Positions 33,001-42,000 of a DNA stretch of 64,000 nt are shown piece after piece; position 1 is the first letter of the stretch, and every line of letters begins with the position of its first letter. This DNA comes from an uncultured Pseudomonadota bacterium (GTDB taxonomy: Bacteria; Babelota; Babeliae; Babelales; JAUPTZ01): assembly GCA_964429275.1 (NCBI GenBank), contig CAYSBJ010000002.1:176245-240244 (forward strand), read 5' to 3'. Made by a program: the position numbers.

Positions 33001-36000
33001 TGGCTTTTTGCCAGTAGGGATGTTTCCTGTCAAAAGAGCGCCCAAACGGTAGCTATGTGCTTTCTTCAAGAAGGTGTAACCAAGAGCTACTTTAACGTCA
33101 GCAACTTGCGTTGTGTTAACGTGAGTCGGGCTGATGATAGCGTTTGCAAGTGCGGCTTGTGTAAGCGTTACTGCGTATGTGCTACCAACAACTACAGATT
33201 TACCAAGACTTGCGCCACCAAAGTAGTCAGCAAGGCCTTTGCCGCCACCTAAGCTAGCAGCCAAAGAGTTTGCGGTGCCAGTGTAGGTTGGGCGAAGAGA
33301 AGTGCGTACGTACGTAACTGGTGCAGATACGTCAAACGAAAGTCCTTCAACCAACTTATCCAACGATTGTGACCATTGCAATTGTGCGCCGGCTTCAATG
33401 CGACGTGGGCTCAATGCAACGTTACCGTACATTGCGCTTGTAGTGTTATCAATAATTTGTGGATCGACTTGACCGCTGTTCAAACCAGTTGTTGTAGCTG
33501 TTGTAAGCGCTACATTGATCAAGCCGGTAGGAACTGCAGCTGTGCCATCACCAAAGTATTGGGCAAGCTTTACGTGGTTGTGGGATTGACGATAGAAAGC
33601 TGCTGCGCTAACAACTGCTCCGATCGCGTCTTTACTTTTATTATGCATTCTGTGGCAAGCGCGGCTGATCAACGCATTGTCGCTGATTGTGCCACGGTGT
33701 GCTATGAATGTTTGGTTAACATTAGCTGCAAACATTGTGGTGCTTGCAAGTGTTAATGCTGCCAAGAGGCCATGTATGATTTTTTTCTTCATACTAGTGC
33801 TCCTATGTTGTTACTACTCTTAATTTCCACTGATTTGACGCGCTTGCGATGAAGCGCACACGCCAATTTGCTTCTTCAGTGACCGTTGTCTCGTGCAAAA
33901 TCAACTTAGAGAGAAGAGCACGCTGAATACAAGAATTTTGAAATATTTTTTTTTCAAAGTCCTCTCGTTGAGCGGTTTTTGCGCACACAAACTATCCAAA
34001 AACATAATAAAAATCGGGCTTTTTGTCGGTGAGTATTTCATTTCATTCTCAGTGTAGTGGATACAGAAAAATTACACGGCGCAAACGACAGGATACTGTG
34101 GATTCTGACATGGTCGAAAAAAGAAAAGGCGACACATTTCTATGCCGCCCTCTCTTCTGTTGAGTGAAAATGGTTAGAAGCTAAAGCCAAGCTTTGCCCA
34201 TACAGCCCAGGAATTAACCGAAGTGTTGTTTGAAGAAAGATCAACTTCTGCGCCGATAGCGGTGTGGACAGGCAGCGATAATTGAAAGCGGTATCCCGTG
34301 TCGATACCAACTTTATGAATTACTTGTATCGGTGTTGTAGCAGTATCTAAATCAAGTGCGTATGTGCCAGCAGTGTTGCCTGGATTCAGAATTGGATTGC
34401 CAACTGTTACTGGTGTTGCGTAGTAGTCAGCGGTGGCACTAAAGTTAAAAGCGCTGGTGCCGGCTGTAAATTCAGGAGAGCCGCTTCCCGTTACAAAGCC
34501 GCTGGAGACGATATTTGCGTACTGTGTGTTATTCCAGTTTCCCTTGAGCGTCAGTGATTCTTGTTGAGTGTAGAACAAGTTGTAGGTGACGTTTGCGGTG
34601 AAACGATTGTGGCAGTAGCAGAAGCCAACGATACTTTCTAGGCGACTGCCCGGAACCACGCTTACTGCAAGCGTTGACACGTTTGCAAGCGGCATGGCGT
34701 GTGTAGTGCCGTTAGAGCCAACCAAGCTATACTGACCTTGTGCGACATTGCCACTTGAGGTGTTGGTCATGCCAATCGTGCGAATCTGTTGTGCGCCAAA
34801 ACCATAGTTGTAATCAAATCCGGCGCGCATGCTAACGGAGCTGCTCTTGTCGTCGCTACGCCACAAGTTGAATCGTGCACTTAAGCCGCCGCCAAGAAAA
34901 ACGCTTCGGTTGCCAACATTTGGCTCAAAAGCAACTGAGCCGGTCGGCTTAGTGCCGGTTGGAATAAGTGCGTTAATCGATGCGTCAATGCGGTAGTCTT
35001 TTTCTTTTAAGAGAGTGTAACCAAGTGCGCAGCGTACATCGGCAACGTGCGTTGTGCTATTGTTAGTAGTCGTTAGTACTTGTTTAGTGAGTGCGTCTTG
35101 TGTTACCGGGCTTGTTTTGTCGAGATTTTTCCCGCCAAAGAAATCAGCAAGGCCTTTGCCGCCGCCTTTTGACGCGGAAGCCAATGAGTTTGCGACTGCA
35201 TTAGCATAGGTTGCTCCCGTATGTGTACGTACATATACGATTGCGCTGGAGACCGATGCCCAGAGGCCAGCAACAAAATTGCCAAGGCTTTGGTCCCATT
35301 GCAGCTGGGCGCCCGCTTCAAGGCGCTGTGGATTAAGGAGCACGGTGCCGTACATTTCATGGGTGTTATCGCTTGATGAGGTTGATTGTACGTCAATCTG
35401 TCCGCTCACTAAGCCGGTTGTTACCCCTGAGCCGAGAGCTACATCAATCATGGCGCTTGGATTTGCAGACGTTCCGTCACCAAGGTACTGTGCAAGCTTG
35501 GTATTGTTGTATGATTGGCGGTAGAAAGCAGCCGCAGTGAGCGTGCCACCAAACTTGCCTTTTCGTATGTGGTTACGTATGCAGCCTGTCTTGCTGATTA
35601 GTGTATTATTGCTTATGCTACCGCGACTCATCATAAAGGTTTTGTTTACTGCAGTGGCTTCGAGCATGCAAATACTAGAAAAAGTGGTCAGTGCCAAAAG
35701 GCTCTGTATGATTTTTTTCTTCATACGGTTTTTCCCTGTGTTGTCGCTGTAAATTTAATTTTTACGCTGATTTGCGCGCAATAACTGTAAAGAACTGGTA
35801 AGACTGGCACAAGAAATTTGAAATATTCTCTTTAGACGCTTTTTCTGGCGCTTGTTTCTGCGGATATTTTAATTTTAACTACTCGTCTCTTGTGCAAAGC
35901 AGCAAACTCCTCGTATGATTTCCATTCAATGATCAAAAAGGCAACCACCCAAGAAAGGACATCTCTATGATACAAACTCCGCAAACACCACCGGTCCGCG

Positions 36001-39000: not shown

Positions 39001-42000
39001 CATTATTTGAAGCGGCTACTTCCTGGCGCTCACAGTGCTTGGTGCCTATTGTTGCGGTGACTGGGTCGCTTGGTAAAACAACAACGGTTGATATGCTGAC
39101 TGCTATCTTTGCGGTGGACCGCTTACCGGTTTTGATTGTTCCGGCCGGGATCTCTTCGGTAGCTGAACTTGCTATAAAAATGCTGCATATTACAAGCAAG
39201 CATCTTGCGGCAGTATTTGAAGTAGGCACTATGCCCGCTGGTGAAATGCGTCGCTGTGCCGACCTTATGCGGCCGACAATCGCGATTATTACTGCAATTT
39301 GCCCTGCTTATTTGGAAGATAGTGGCGGGCTTGATCATATTGCGAGTGAAAAACAACAGATATTTTCCTATTTTAGCCCAAGCCAAGTTGGTATTGTGTG
39401 CGGCGACTATCCAATGTTGACCTCTCATTTTTACGAACATCCGGTAGTTCGCTTTGGGCTAAAGAATAAAAACGTGGTAACGGCACGTAAGGTAACATTC
39501 TTCCGTGACGAACATGGCATGAATAAAACAAAGCTTGTTCTACGTGTCTATGATTATGAACGTGAAGTAATTTTATCTGGGCACCATCGTGGACTTGTAT
39601 ATGGTGCATTGGCTGCTAGCGCACTCGCGCATTTTTTGTATGTACCGTTTGAAGTCATGGTAAAAGGCCTTGTAGCCTACGTTCCAACAGCCTGTGGATT
39701 GCATCAGTATGCATTGCGCGACGGTCGTGGCATGTTGATGCAAGATTCGCATAGCATCAGCCCTGAAAGTGTTAAAGCATCTTTGCATGCGGTTCATGAG
39801 AGTGGCACACTGCAGTCTCGTAAAATTGCAGTACTTGGTATGATCCCCTATTTGGGTCAGCGTACACCATTTTGGCATCGCCATGTGGGGCGAGAACTCA
39901 TTAAAACACGCAGCATTTCTGATATTGTTTTGGTTGGTGAAGATACCCGTCCAATTCGTGCCGTGGCTCCGGCAACAATGAATATTTGGCTTGCTTCAGA
40001 ATGGAGCGACGTGCAAGGGCAAGTCGAGCGCCTTTTGGCTCCTTCTGACAACGTGCTGCTTATTAGCGGTGCGGCGCCACTTTCTATGAATCGACTTGTT
40101 GCCGAATTGGTGTAGAAACCATCTCTTTTTACTTATTTTTACTTAAATATTGTCATTGCCTGTTTGTTGGCATTAGGATGCGCTTACTATTCAACAAAAC
40201 CCTTTTAAAACCAGGCAGAAGAGAGGTGAAGCATGGCAGAGCGTATAGCGAGCACTACGTTGAGCGATCATGAACGAGGTCTAATAGATACCGTTACCGG
40301 ATTACCTCATAAAATATTGCGATACCATTCCTTGGATGGTTTGTCTCAGATGGTTTTGCATGAGCTTGGCCATGATACGGGCTTTGGTTTTGATCGGGCG
40401 ACCTACTTGGTCGACAACCCAGATTTTGATCATTTGCTTGGGGTTGCAGGGTTTGATCGTCAAGAATGCAGCATGCATAAGAAAAACATTTGGGAGCATC
40501 CTGAAGGTTTTTGCAAAGATATGGAAGCAGCAGCGTTTAACAATAATGTTCGCAGAATCTTAAATAGTAGCGTGGCGCGCAAAGAGGTGAATTTGAACGA
40601 TGCTCATGATGTAAAGGCGCTTGGCTTTGAACTTGGCATTAAAAACCCGCAATTCTTTGCATGGGACATGAAGCATGGCAATCATGGTGTGTTTATCTAT
40701 GAAAAAAATGATAGCATTTGCCTTTGGCGACATGGCTTATTAAAGAATATGAGTTCGTTACTTGGGATGTGTGGACTGCACTAAAAAGCAGACAAATCTT
40801 CTGGTTGTCGTGCTTGCAGGATTGCATTTTCCAGTGTTTGTAAGTCGAGCTCCTTCTTTCCTTGCGCAAGCATCGAATAGATCGTTTGCGCAACCAGTGA
40901 GTCTACTTGCCGTCCAACAAGTCCTTCTAGCTTTTGGCCTAACATTGTTTTCTCATTAATGATATCGGTGTGCAACGTAAAACTATTGTCTAAGATATGT
41001 TGCTTTAGGTACACATCAAGCAAGGCACGCAACTGTTCTTCGCCTGGTACGGAGAAGCGAATGCGGTTTGATGGGTCGATACGGTTGAGAAGCGCTTTGT
41101 CGATGCGATCTGGATAGTTTGTCGACAGAATAAACATCATATTGGTGTTAATAGCCCGTTCAAAGAAGCTGAGCATGGTGGTGGTTAAGTCGTTGGTCAT
41201 TTCATTAGCGTATTGTGAACCGCGGTCTGCAAACATAGTTTCTGCTTCGTCAAACACCAAGATTACCGGCACTTTGCTCTTGCTCGCCCAGCGTAACGTG
41301 TCAGCCAGCGCCGCCTGTGCTTTTGAGGCGCTACCAAGGCGCTTGAGGGCTGGTCCACGAACAATGACGTGATTGGCAAGTTTGTCTTCATAGAGTTTGC
41401 GCGCAAACGCTTGTGCTGCCATTGTTTTTCCGGTTCCCGCTGGTCCGTAGAACAGCATGTTGCTTAATGGCATGTGTTGTTTGAGTGCCAGTGTGAGACC
41501 AGTAAATTTCCCGAGTACTTTTTCTGCCAAACGTGGCTCCAAAATAACATTTTGCAGGTTTGAGGTAGGAACTTTAAAGCCGCGCCATTTCTCAAAGGGA
41601 CTGAGCATCGAAGTATCCGTGCGCTCAATAATAGTGGGTCGTGGTTGGTAGTAGTGACGTGCCGCAAAATAGGTCAAAATAGTGAGCATAACGCCGCCGG
41701 TTCCCAAAAGAAGAGCTTGGCGCTGACGCTTAGTGCCTTCTTCTAAGTCAGCCTTATGTTGGCGTTCAAGGCGGGGGGCATCGGCGATAGTTTTGGCAAT
41801 TTCTCGACGAGTTATCATTTTTTCTTGTGCGCCCATGAACATGGTATCCATATACCCGCCTGCACCTTTTTCTACAAGCCGCAGGTACATATCACCTACT
41901 TTTTCTGCGGTCGCAGGGCTGAGAATACTTTGTTGGCGCTTAATATCAGTAGCCATGGCATTCGAAAAACGGTTTAACATTTCTTTTACGCGTGCCTCGG

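Follow-up and report, generated by a model that had tools for sequence, protein, structure and literature searches.

A MurF-derived protein retained beside ftsK in a genus of Babelales without detectable peptidoglycan synthesis

Genome searches support the loss of peptidoglycan synthesis across a whole genus of the Babelales, in which one Mur ligase gene persists beside ftsK. The encoded protein is probably (roughly 0.7) an exapted, ATP-binding derivative of MurF with a peptidoglycan-independent role. That it has ceased to be an amino-acid ligase and serves as a nucleotide-dependent scaffold or regulator is a narrower proposal, to which slightly less than even odds are given. Tiny host-dependent bacteria without a wall would thus keep one ex-wall enzyme under selection, probably for another job.

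Under the exaptation proposed here, the wall pathway would have been lost in the genus and the outer membrane and a minimal divisome would have stayed, leaving the ligase without MurF work. Since MurA to MurE and Ddl were not found, neither of its substrates, UDP-MurNAc-tripeptide and D-Ala-D-Ala, could presumably be made, and since MraY was not found its product would have no user. The ligase would have lost recognition of the UDP-sugar (N domain) and of the incoming dipeptide (C domain), together with the gamma-phosphate arginine, and ATP binding would be retained through the kept core of the nucleotide site (P-loop, Mg-binding Glu and ribose-binding Asp). Loss of MurF activity, retained ATP binding and a new role are what we infer from the sequences.

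The window, that is the whole stretch of 64,000 nucleotides analysed, is C2:176245-240244 of G000, the genome under study. On its forward strand lie ftsK (35967-38588) and the gene for a MurF-derived Mur-ligase-fold protein of 481 aa (38670-40115), identified by Mur_ligase_M, TIGR01143, orthology and fold. The positions 35967-40115 of the survey's finding match the window and not the contig; its contig position for the ligase, C2:214914-216359, agrees with an ATG at window position 38670, preceded by AGGAG. This is the likely start within an open frame of 38601-40115 that opens with a TTG at 38601.

Origin of the ligase

The ligase descends from the genuine MurF of the order, the enzyme that adds D-Ala-D-Ala. 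Used as a query, it has one strong match per genome (E <= 1e-10) in 58/61 genomes, the exceptions being G021, G044 and G054, with 25-36% identity outside its family. ftsK stands directly upstream of the orthologue in 23 of 30 loci; the linkage of ftsK and murF goes back to the ancestor of the order and is no special trait of the genus. Within the genus, the reported adjacency was seen in four of the five members; the contig of the fifth, G002, ends short of the site. G015, G022 and G023 each carry four ligases, MurC, MurD, MurE and MurF, of which the ftsK-linked one is MurF (353-370 bits; cut-off 288.6). In a quick maximum-likelihood tree (the careful search is unfinished, and the tree leaves out the partial sequences from G001 and G176), the proteins of f1, the family to which the genus belongs, fall together within the Babelales MurFs with 100% support, and the stems leading to them measure 0.83 and 0.70 against a median end branch of 0.45. 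The earlier assignment of the ligase as orthologue of the lineage's MurF is thus upheld by position and by phylogeny.

Remodelling of the substrate sites

In passages of PMC3060825, the Mur ligase P-loop, Arg and His are described as binding the triphosphate, Asn/His/Asn the adenine, Asp the ribose and Thr/Glu/His the metal, with a carbamoylated Lys being essential. For Escherichia coli MurF, the ATP site is given as Lys111, Thr112, Glu158, Arg316, Tyr333 and Ser434 in the part of PMC10618370 that covers it. Residue roles were mapped onto the ligase by alignment to other Mur ligases, and its replacements are seen directly against the solved PaMurF structure 4cvk. A set of 81 columns was drawn up from 25 wall-competent orthologues, each column being conserved in 24 or more of them. 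G000 retains 55 of these columns; the orthologues themselves retain 77-81, a figure that is high partly by construction, the set having been defined on them. In the ligase, the N-domain UDP-site motifs (DSR, DGH), GNxN, the GRF arginine, YNANP, GDMxELG and KGSR are lost or randomised. A survey of 14 full-length clade members (46-100% identity) against a canonical set of 28 sequences found 5-9 different residues in each of the DSR, DGH and GNxN columns. Of 77 canonical-invariant columns, 39 vary among clade members, and there is no column in which a different residue has become invariant. The Pfam N-domain PF01225 was matched by 16/22 of the more distant database relatives but by 0/17 of those with identity from 46% upwards. 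By these alignments, the ligase is not simply a retained MurF: nearly every one of the substrate motifs specific to MurF has been remodelled.

The kept residues bear on whether the exapted protein still catalyses. The P-loop (GxGKTT, G/G/K/T/T), Glu184 (Mg-binding), Asp359 (ribose-binding) and, in the C domain, W402-H403-R404 and a GR motif are invariant in 14/14 members, and the carbamoyl-Lys column holds K in 11/14 of the clade, G000 included. Together with purifying selection on all three domains, this conservation favours an enzyme that still makes amide bonds at the cost of ATP but joins a new acceptor to a new donor, comparable to FolC, CapB, MurT and CfbE. The superfamily has switched substrates repeatedly, as seen from NCBIfam matches to cyanophycin synthetase, FolC, CfbE and pMur. 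Such an enzyme would be a sub-case of exaptation, rival to the non-ligase sub-case, and we consider it unlikely. The residues of acyl-phosphate chemistry are patchy in the clade, the Arg of GRF standing in 8/14 and the Mg2 His in 10/14 beside the 11/14 for Lys (each at least 26/28 in the canonical set); the His is kept in G001-G003 and is Tyr in G000 and G004. Moreover, the old substrate-site columns are randomised without any new invariant, and no candidate for a pathway partner was seen among the neighbours (ftsK and a 183-aa ORF).

Arg, His, Lys, NAN and KGS persist in some members of the clade, and ligase chemistry may therefore survive in part of it.

Fold and selection

The ligase scores 72.8 bits on Mur_ligase_M, above the cut-off, 22.7 on Mur_ligase_C, below 28.4, and 173 on TIGR01143 (murF), below 288.6. 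These last two scores, the long branch and the many functional motifs that are gone could be taken to mark a functionless, decaying relic whose deletion is still to come, and orphan mur genes are reported elsewhere, namely murB and murJ in Anaplasma phagocytophilum and murE in Buchnera (PMC10591338, in part). This reading, already disfavoured, is very improbable given the evidence for selection. Between G000 and G004, the one unsaturated pair (dS is saturated between species), there are 79 synonymous vs 19 non-synonymous differences, a dN/dS of 0.064, with 0.04-0.09 in each of the three domains. The frame is intact wherever contigs allow in 5/5 genus genomes (full length in G000, G003 and G004), and open frames with 111 invariant columns extend across 14 full-length relatives, the most distant at 46% identity. 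In addition, the predicted structure is a confident and complete three-domain MurF fold (pLDDT 89.6, pTM 0.84), whose top 10 PDB matches are all MurF (TM 0.77-0.81 to 4qf5). The ligase is under purifying selection.

Loss of peptidoglycan synthesis

The genus comprises five metagenome-assembled genomes (G000-G004), for which absences were inferred from HMM and BLAST searches. G000 and G003, each 98% complete, are independent species in 8 and 20 contigs; the other three are 66-84% complete. In six-frame searches down to E 0.001, Glycos_transf_4/MraY, SEDS (FtsW/RodA), PBP transpeptidase and MreB were each found in 0/5 genus genomes, and MurA, MurB_C, MurG and Ddl in neither G000 nor G003, in agreement with the survey's finding on all of these. 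With relatives' MurC, MurD, MurE and MraY as queries, tblastn detected nothing in G000 besides the one ligase locus. The claim of a single Mur ligase per genus genome stood for G000, which has one Mur_ligase_M locus; G004 gave two Mur_ligase_M matches in the profile search. Relatives and 14 control genomes served as positive controls, relatives' genes being recovered at E 1e-25 to 1e-150. Among 214 Babelales genomes that are 85% complete or better, 206 have a true MraY; SEDS occurs in 53/61 and PBP in 24/31.

These absences weigh against a working MurF in a cryptic or host-complemented pathway, with other steps performed by the host or by unrecognised enzymes. The mealybug-Moranella host-bacterium mosaic offers a model for such a pathway (PMC6838666, in part), a Buchnera strain is reported to make peptidoglycan without MurC, MurE and MurF (PMC10591338, in part), and the genus retains uppS and an OmpA-type domain. 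However, with no MraY, MurG, SEDS or PBPs found the product would be without a user, Ddl was not found, and MurF's own motifs at the UDP site and the dipeptide site are gone; the idea is, if anything, a shade less credible than that of a relic. Least tenable is an artefact of incomplete bins or extreme divergence: every genome is a MAG, three of five are only 66-84% complete and very divergent genes could slip past the initial filter used when the genomes were searched, but two 98%-complete species lack every family tested, the same searches succeed in relatives, tblastn with relatives' proteins concurs, and pathway genes are dispersed in relatives, from 73 kb to 1.39 Mb in the peptidoglycan-competent G022, so that one unbinned contig cannot account for the absences.

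The sister genus and other wall-less lineages

The sister genus was said to keep mraY and ftsW. Its ftsW is real (263.6 bits). The sole Glycos_transf_4 match of its genome, G005, reaches only 53 bits on TIGR00445 (cut-off 192; true MraY 183-393) and was rejected as MraY; it is probably a WecA-like paralogue, since the second, WecA-like copy in other Babelales scores 34-75 bits. At 64% completeness, no true mraY, PBP, MurA, MurB, MurG or Ddl was found in the sister genus, and because it shows the same absences, wall loss may have begun before the genus arose.

MraY and SEDS are also missing from two other lineages, G066 (family f3) and g18 (family f17), in families whose other genera retain MraY. 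In G066, the sole wall gene kept is a near-canonical MurF (76/80 conserved columns), followed by rsmH, which MurF clusters with f3 MurFs and apart from the proteins of the genus studied here in the maximum-likelihood tree. g18 has lost MurF altogether (its member G021 is 95% complete), and the wall-free job of MurF is therefore dispensable there. G066 has MurF without ftsK and g18 has ftsK without MurF, which is evidence against an obligate partnership of MurF with FtsK.

Comparison with known systems

Loss of the wall has precedents in Babela and Ehrlichia, and other reduced bacteria are known to carry orphan mur genes. Babela massiliensis (Dependentiae), which parasitises amoebae, has no wall and belongs to the same order, is described in parts of PMC4378268 and PMC4776705 as being without the murein pathway, MreB/C, FtsW and FtsI ('most' peptidoglycan genes in PMC4776705) and as keeping FtsZ, FtsA and ZapA; loss of the pathway with retention of FtsZ and FtsA is thus common to both. 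FtsK is kept in the genus of G000 but reported absent in B. massiliensis, for which those parts make no mention of a residual Mur ligase, and GC is 27% in B. massiliensis vs about 46% in G000. The survey's finding took the two losses to be probably independent. Because the families differ, and with the f3 and f17 lineages and the MurF tree now added, independence is better founded. G066 shares with the published B. massiliensis the lack of FtsK and a GC of about 28% at one locus, a likeness only.

Other retained genes resemble the ligase in part. The orphan murB and murJ kept after wall loss in A. phagocytophilum, which like Ehrlichia belongs to the Alphaproteobacteria, are not Mur ligase genes, and the parts of PMC10591338 concerned describe neither selection nor motifs for them. 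A lone Mur ligase gene after pathway loss, murE, is described for one Buchnera group, in 53% of its genomes and consistent with ongoing loss (PMC10591338, in part), whereas the ligase is present in 5/5 genus genomes under purifying selection. Canonical MurF (TIGR01143; 4cvk, 4qf5, 1gg4) shares with the ligase its descent, three-domain fold, P-loop, Mg-binding Glu, ribose Asp and carbamoyl-Lys column; the ligase differs in falling under the family cut-off, in the loss of DSR, DGH, GNxN, the GRF Arg, YNANP, GDMxELG and KGSR, and in having neither substrate supply nor downstream pathway. A eukaryotic MurE-derived protein likewise has a Mur-ligase fold with upstream pathway steps missing, is essential and is believed to play a structural part in a different machinery; unlike the ligase, it is nuclear-encoded and makes its contacts through added C-terminal folds.

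Retained division genes and the ligase neighbourhood

The ftsA, ftsZ and uppS genes and the one OmpA domain reported earlier were all found, and the outer membrane is kept in the genus (BamA). A 265-aa protein proposed as FtsQ by fold (pLDDT 85.9) bore this out, with FtsQ as each of its top eight Foldseek matches; its gene has a dN/dS of 0.116 (G000 vs G004, as for those below). A minimal divisome of FtsZ, FtsA, the FtsQ-like protein and FtsK is supported. The window FtsK is a DNA translocase of 873 aa with all four Pfam domains above their cut-offs (FtsK_SpoIIIE motor 210 bits, FtsK_alpha 87, FtsK_gamma 71, FtsK_4TM 54), a PRK10263 match of 418 bits and a dN/dS of 0.030.

That the ligase is tied to division or chromosome segregation is no more than a suggestion from the order-wide ftsK-murF adjacency, weakened by the occurrence of each gene without the other in other wall-less lineages. 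Co-transcription of the two is likewise only suggested: in the 81-nt spacer (38589-38669, forward strand), which holds the Shine-Dalgarno-like AGGAG, neither a terminator-like nor a promoter-like site was found, scan counts being not above those of shuffles. Downstream of the ligase on the same strand lies the conserved ORF of 183 aa (40233-40784), which has no match in Pfam and NCBIfam searches and a dN/dS of 0.023. A homologue occurs within 1.5 kb downstream in 10 of the 30 ligase loci, including five other genera at 43-53% identity. Language-model look-alikes of this ORF include GAF-domain clusters, a lead only.

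Loss of peptidoglycan synthesis in the genus

Obligate intracellular bacteria that have lost the wall are already known. Among the Dependentiae such a loss has been described for Babela, according to passages of PMC4378268 and PMC4776705, and the genus considered here (G000-G004, family f1 of the Babelales, with G000 the genome studied) represents a further, independent wall loss, accompanied by a protein derived from MurF that bears clear marks of exaptation. What is new is that the loss is documented genus-wide and against 214 relatives. Pathway genes were sought by six-frame HMM searches, with 14 reference genomes and the relatives as positive controls. 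Glycos_transf_4 was found in none of the five genus genomes vs all 56 other Babelales searched, and true MraY (TIGR00445) was equally missing from the five. SEDS proteins (FtsW/RodA) were detected in 53 of 61 genomes overall, the exceptions being the five genus genomes, G021, G054 and G026, and PBP transpeptidase in 24 of 31, the exceptions being the same five, G021 and the sister genus (G005). HMM searches for MreB were also negative in all five. MurG, MurA, MurB_C and Ddl were found in neither G000 nor G003 (98% complete), nor in G005 or G021; all four were detected in the wall-competent control G015.

G000 (1.208 Mb, 8 contigs, 97.95% complete) has one Mur_ligase_M locus and most relatives have 4-5; tblastn of relatives' MurC, MurD, MurE and MraY against G000 matched only this ligase locus, or nothing. 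The other genus genomes have one Mur_ligase_M match each, apart from G004 (66% complete, 3% contamination) with two. The survey's finding that the genus has no MraY, FtsW/RodA or PBP transpeptidase is borne out by the searches, as are, for G000, the survival of a single Mur-ligase gene and, for G000 and G003, the lack of MurA, MurB, MurG and Ddl. Since the pathway genes of G022, a wall-competent relative assembled as a single contig, are dispersed between 73 kb and 1.39 Mb, one missing contig cannot account for the absences, and MraY (E <= 1e-35) is present in 206 of 214 Babelales genomes of at least 85% completeness. With MraY, MurG, SEDS and PBP transpeptidase not found, the genus is predicted from its gene content to be without lipid II synthesis or polymerases. 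As a side observation, the Ddl of G015 (G015:C2:47709-49475) is a single 760-aa frame in which the Dala_Dala_lig_C domain occurs twice in tandem (134 and 126 bits), an apparent Ddl-Ddl fusion.

Most Babelales possess two Glycos_transf_4 genes, a true MraY (183-393 bits on TIGR00445) and a WecA-like paralogue (34-75 bits). The sister genus had been reported to retain both mraY and ftsW, of which only the second is supported: G005 (64% complete) has one SEDS gene (263.6 bits), and its sole Glycos_transf_4 gene, at 53 bits on TIGR00445, lies within the WecA-like range and is the paralogue. In addition, G005 carries a MurF-like gene that falls short of the cut-off (257 bits) and a MurC-like one that is very divergent, with 238 bits against a cut-off of 335 and an end branch of 1.84. 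Because HMM searches of this genome, which is only 64% complete, found no true mraY, PBP, MurA, MurB, MurG or Ddl, erosion of the pathway may predate the genus.

Wall loss elsewhere in the Babelales

The eight genomes without MraY among the 214 are G000 and G003 of the genus, G021 and G054 (genus g18, family f17), G066 (family f3), and G071, G076 and G176. In g18 (G021 95% and G054 89% complete) SEDS is absent, PBP was not found in G021, the one member searched, and there is no Mur ligase except one of FolC type in G054 (172 bits, above the cut-off); FtsK is kept and MurF lost. In G066 (one contig, 95% complete) searches for Glycos_transf_4, SEDS, MreB and FtsK were negative, and exactly one Mur ligase is present, a near-canonical MurF that keeps 76 of 80 conserved columns, has lost GNxN and is encoded by a gene overlapping rsmH by 4 nt. 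MurF is the last remaining Mur enzyme in two independent lineages, the genus and G066, and is gone in a third, g18. The three wall-less lineages represent three outcomes (MurF and FtsK kept, MurF only, FtsK only) and, taken together, can be compared as a small system to learn how division proceeds in wall-less bacteria. An obligate FtsK-MurF partnership is disfavoured, as each protein occurs in the absence of the other, MurF in G066 and FtsK in g18.

G176 lacks MraY and SEDS and has one partial MurF adjoining ftsK; it is unsafe as a further wall-less lineage with an orphan MurF, being 87% complete in 180 contigs with MreB fragments. G071 and G076 were rejected as wall-less, each having four Mur ligases and two SEDS genes. 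Both belong to family f3 (88% and 93% complete, respectively, 5 contigs each) and are without a true MraY match, G076 having only the WecA-like paralogue and G071 no Glycos_transf_4 at all; their MraY either lies in an assembly gap or has been replaced.

Descent of the ligase from MurF

The surviving ligase, a protein of 481 aa, is encoded in the window (G000:C2:176245-240244) on the forward strand from ATG 38670, the most likely start, to 40115. It follows ftsK (35967-38588, also forward; 873 aa, with FtsK 4TM, alpha, motor and gamma domains all above their Pfam cut-offs) after a spacer of 81 nt that carries AGGAG ahead of the ATG. A promoter and terminator scan around the two genes returned sites no more numerous than in shuffles and is uninformative on operon structure. 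One strong match to the ligase per genome (E <= 1e-10) is present in 58 of 61 genomes, with none in G021, G044 and G054; identity is 96, 68, 62 and 52-62% among genus members, falling to 38% for G005 and to 25-36% for the other genera. Linkage of ftsK and murF is ancestral to the order, because ftsK is the gene immediately upstream, in the same orientation, at 23 of 30 loci examined with 1.5-kb flanks (genus 4/5, G005 0/1, other genera 19/24). In G015, G022 and G023, all wall-competent and well assembled, the four Mur ligases resolve cleanly into MurC, MurD, MurE and MurF, and the ftsK-linked one is MurF (353-370 bits on TIGR01143). In a quick ML tree (LG+C20, 43 rows, partial G001 and G176 rows left out), G005 and the genus form a clade with 100% support nested among Babelales MurFs, on stems of 0.83 and 0.70 changes per site (median end branch 0.45). 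By synteny and this tree, the ligase is the orthologue of Babelales MurF.

Downstream of the ligase is a conserved ORF (40233-40784, forward) for a soluble protein of 183 aa that matches no Pfam or NCBIfam family even at E 10. It has homologues in at least five other genera, and strong purifying selection acts on it (dN/dS 0.023); its language-model look-alikes in a protein atlas include GAF-domain clusters (score 0.90-0.91), which is a lead only. Reverse-strand ORFs at 40781-42079, 42090-43958, 34174-35724 and 32224-33792 comprise one AAA+ ATPase (432 aa, CDC48/proteasome-ATPase-like, scoring far below the family cut-offs) and, around it, three large ORFs (516-622 aa) without Pfam or NCBIfam match.

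Remodelling and conservation of the ligase

The ligase scores above the cut-off for Mur_ligase_M (72.8 bits, cut-off 24) and below that for Mur_ligase_C (22.7 bits, cut-off 28.4). Among NCBIfam models it matches murF TIGR01143 best, with a score of 173 bits that is below the cut-off of 288.6, spanning profile positions 28-417 only and leaving the first 27 uncovered. Motifs were compared by alignment to P. aeruginosa MurF (4cvk, a solved structure) and 25 wall-competent orthologues; residue roles were taken from passages of PMC3060825 and PMC10618370 and transferred to the ligase through the alignment, and the superfamily invariants are those of Bouhss/Eveland as summarised in part of PMC3060825. 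TGSxGKTT, the FE(V)G glutamate, the EK lysine column and the Asp of D-x-YNANP are kept, and as a member of the Mur ligase superfamily the protein has the central-domain match, the P-loop Lys, the Mg-binding Glu and the ribose Asp. The marks of MurF itself are missing, namely a score above the TIGR01143 cut-off, the UDP-site and GNxN motifs, and the GDMxELG, KGSR and YNANP motifs. In the N domain, DSR is replaced by H.E (D44H, R46E), FVALKG by WWNLDP and DGH by DIS (G64I, H65S). The DSR and DGH motifs of this domain presumably bind the UDP-MurNAc-peptide, as is general for Mur ligases. GNQN has become AGIS (N160G, N162S), GRFE has become CGLH and YNA has become HSI (Y361H, N362S, A363I), and in the C domain GDMLELG is replaced by GMIPYLG (D391M, M392I) and KGSR by SGAA (K466S, S468A). 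Of the remaining superfamily invariants, the Mg2 histidine is substituted in G000 and G004 (H214Y) and kept in G001-G003; the triphosphate arginine (R343) has given way to G or Q in each of the four genus sequences covering the column. At 81 columns conserved in at least 24 of the 25 orthologues, G000 keeps 55, G003 57 and G005 61; for the orthologues, on which the set was defined, the figure is 77-81.

The same pattern extends to the clade of ligase relatives (14 full-length members, 46-100% identity). The P-loop (K136), Glu184, Thr208, Asp359 and the WHR and G..R columns are kept in 14/14, the triphosphate Arg in 8/14, the Mg2 His in 10/14 and the Lys in 11/14. The UDP-site and GNxN columns, conserved in at least 26 of 28 canonical sequences, hold 5-9 different residues each. 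Of 77 columns invariant in canonical sequences, 39 are variable across the clade, and at none of the 77 has another residue become invariant. Remodelling is strongest in the N domain, with 15% identity between the groups vs 37% for the other two domains. Among protein database matches, the Pfam N-domain PF01225 is present in none of 17 relatives at 46-81% identity and in 16 of 22 matches at 37% identity or less.

Between G000 and G004 the ligase gene shows 79 synonymous and 19 non-synonymous differences (dN/dS 0.064; 0.085, 0.041 and 0.089 by domain), for comparison with 0.030 for ftsK, 0.023 for the 183-aa ORF and 0.116 for the ftsQ-like gene; in other species pairs synonymous sites are saturated, with a ligase dN of only 0.25-0.34. 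The AlphaFold2 model (32-sequence alignment; pLDDT 89.6, pTM 0.84) has three folded domains, and its ten best PDB matches by Foldseek are MurF structures (4qf5: TM 0.77-0.81, E 8e-28). The plant PEP subunit PAP11, which is MurE-like, is among the later structural matches.

Possible functions of the ligase

With MurA, MurB, MurC-E, Ddl, MraY and MurG not found in G000 and G003, neither substrate of MurF would be supplied and its product would be without a consumer. The canonical MurF reaction appears to be excluded because substrates and consumer are absent and the substrate sites eroded, and the ligase probably serves some peptidoglycan-independent function (roughly 70%). The conserved core of the protein is its nucleotide site, with the catalytic trio of His, Lys and Arg unevenly kept. 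Because of this, an ATP-binding, non-ligase role is favoured, at slightly under even odds, over a ligase acting on new substrates. The latter is rather unlikely: the P-loop, Mg-binding Glu and ribose Asp are invariant, but the ligase-specific trio is not uniformly kept in the clade. That the gene is a decaying relic is contradicted by the selection data (dN/dS 0.064) and highly improbable. Also new is that this last Mur enzyme is retained under selection despite the erosion of its MurF-specific sites.

The ancestral adjacency of ftsK and murF is no more than a hint of a role near division. It is conceivable, if doubtful, that MurF in Babelales has an additional function independent of peptidoglycan and that the genus ligase is an ATP-binding pseudo-ligase in division or chromosome handling, encoded beside ftsK. 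Such a second job would explain why MurF is the only Mur enzyme left in the genus and in G066, where it is near-canonical, and the wall-related half of the genus protein would have been stripped away. It would also make the ligase a bacterial parallel of MurE-like PAP11 of plants, in which, according to passages of PMC11561172, the Mur-ligase fold is kept without its pathway and used structurally. Other orphans are reported in part of PMC10591338, namely murB and murJ in A. phagocytophilum and murE in some Buchnera. No description of an orphan MurF in Dependentiae was found among the paper titles, abstracts and text passages surveyed, and the supplementary gene tables for Babela (PMC4378268, PMC4776705) may list murF. 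If a wall-independent role is true, the ligase would be a natural separation-of-function variant that could expose a moonlighting activity of an antibiotic target, MurF, and would show exaptation of a core biosynthetic enzyme after the death of its pathway.

Divisome and envelope genes retained

On contig C3 of G000, ftsA and ftsZ follow a 265-aa ORF (G000:C3:77746-78540, outside the window). Neither this ORF nor its positional counterparts in five other genera have a Pfam match, even at E 10. The best eight PDB matches of its model (10-sequence alignment, pLDDT 85.9) are all FtsQ (E 9e-8 to 4e-6, TM 0.40-0.47), so that the ORF, a candidate FtsQ, resembles it in fold (POTRA plus beta-domain) and in its position upstream of ftsA. 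The earlier reports of an FtsQ recognisable by fold alone and of retained ftsA, ftsZ, uppS and one OmpA domain agree with these results, with uppS found in G000, G003 and G004 and one OmpA-type domain in each genus genome. In Ehrlichia, wall loss is accompanied by a remnant comprising FtsZ, FtsA and FtsK together with FtsQ, and the divisome remnant of the genus is newly seen to be the same set, with an FtsQ-like protein.

Because BamA is present, LpxC was not found (none in G000, G003, G015 or G066) and the murein genes are absent, the cell is predicted to be a diderm without murein and without recognisable LPS genes. Chromulinavorax is likewise without recognisable LPS genes, according to passages of PMC6561590. 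An LpxC gene does occur in G005 (G005:C81:3-788, 241 bits); lipid A synthesis seems to be patchy across the order, or the contig foreign. The genus has neither Glycos_transf_4 paralogue, MraY or WecA-like, yet keeps uppS. Proteins with ankyrin repeats are typical of those with which Dependentiae interact with their hosts, according to passages of PMC4776705, and an ORF of 760 aa beside ftsZ and convergent to it (G000:C3:81169-83451; L051 5670-7952, reverse strand) has an ankyrin-repeat match of 26.5 bits, just below the cut-off of 27.3.
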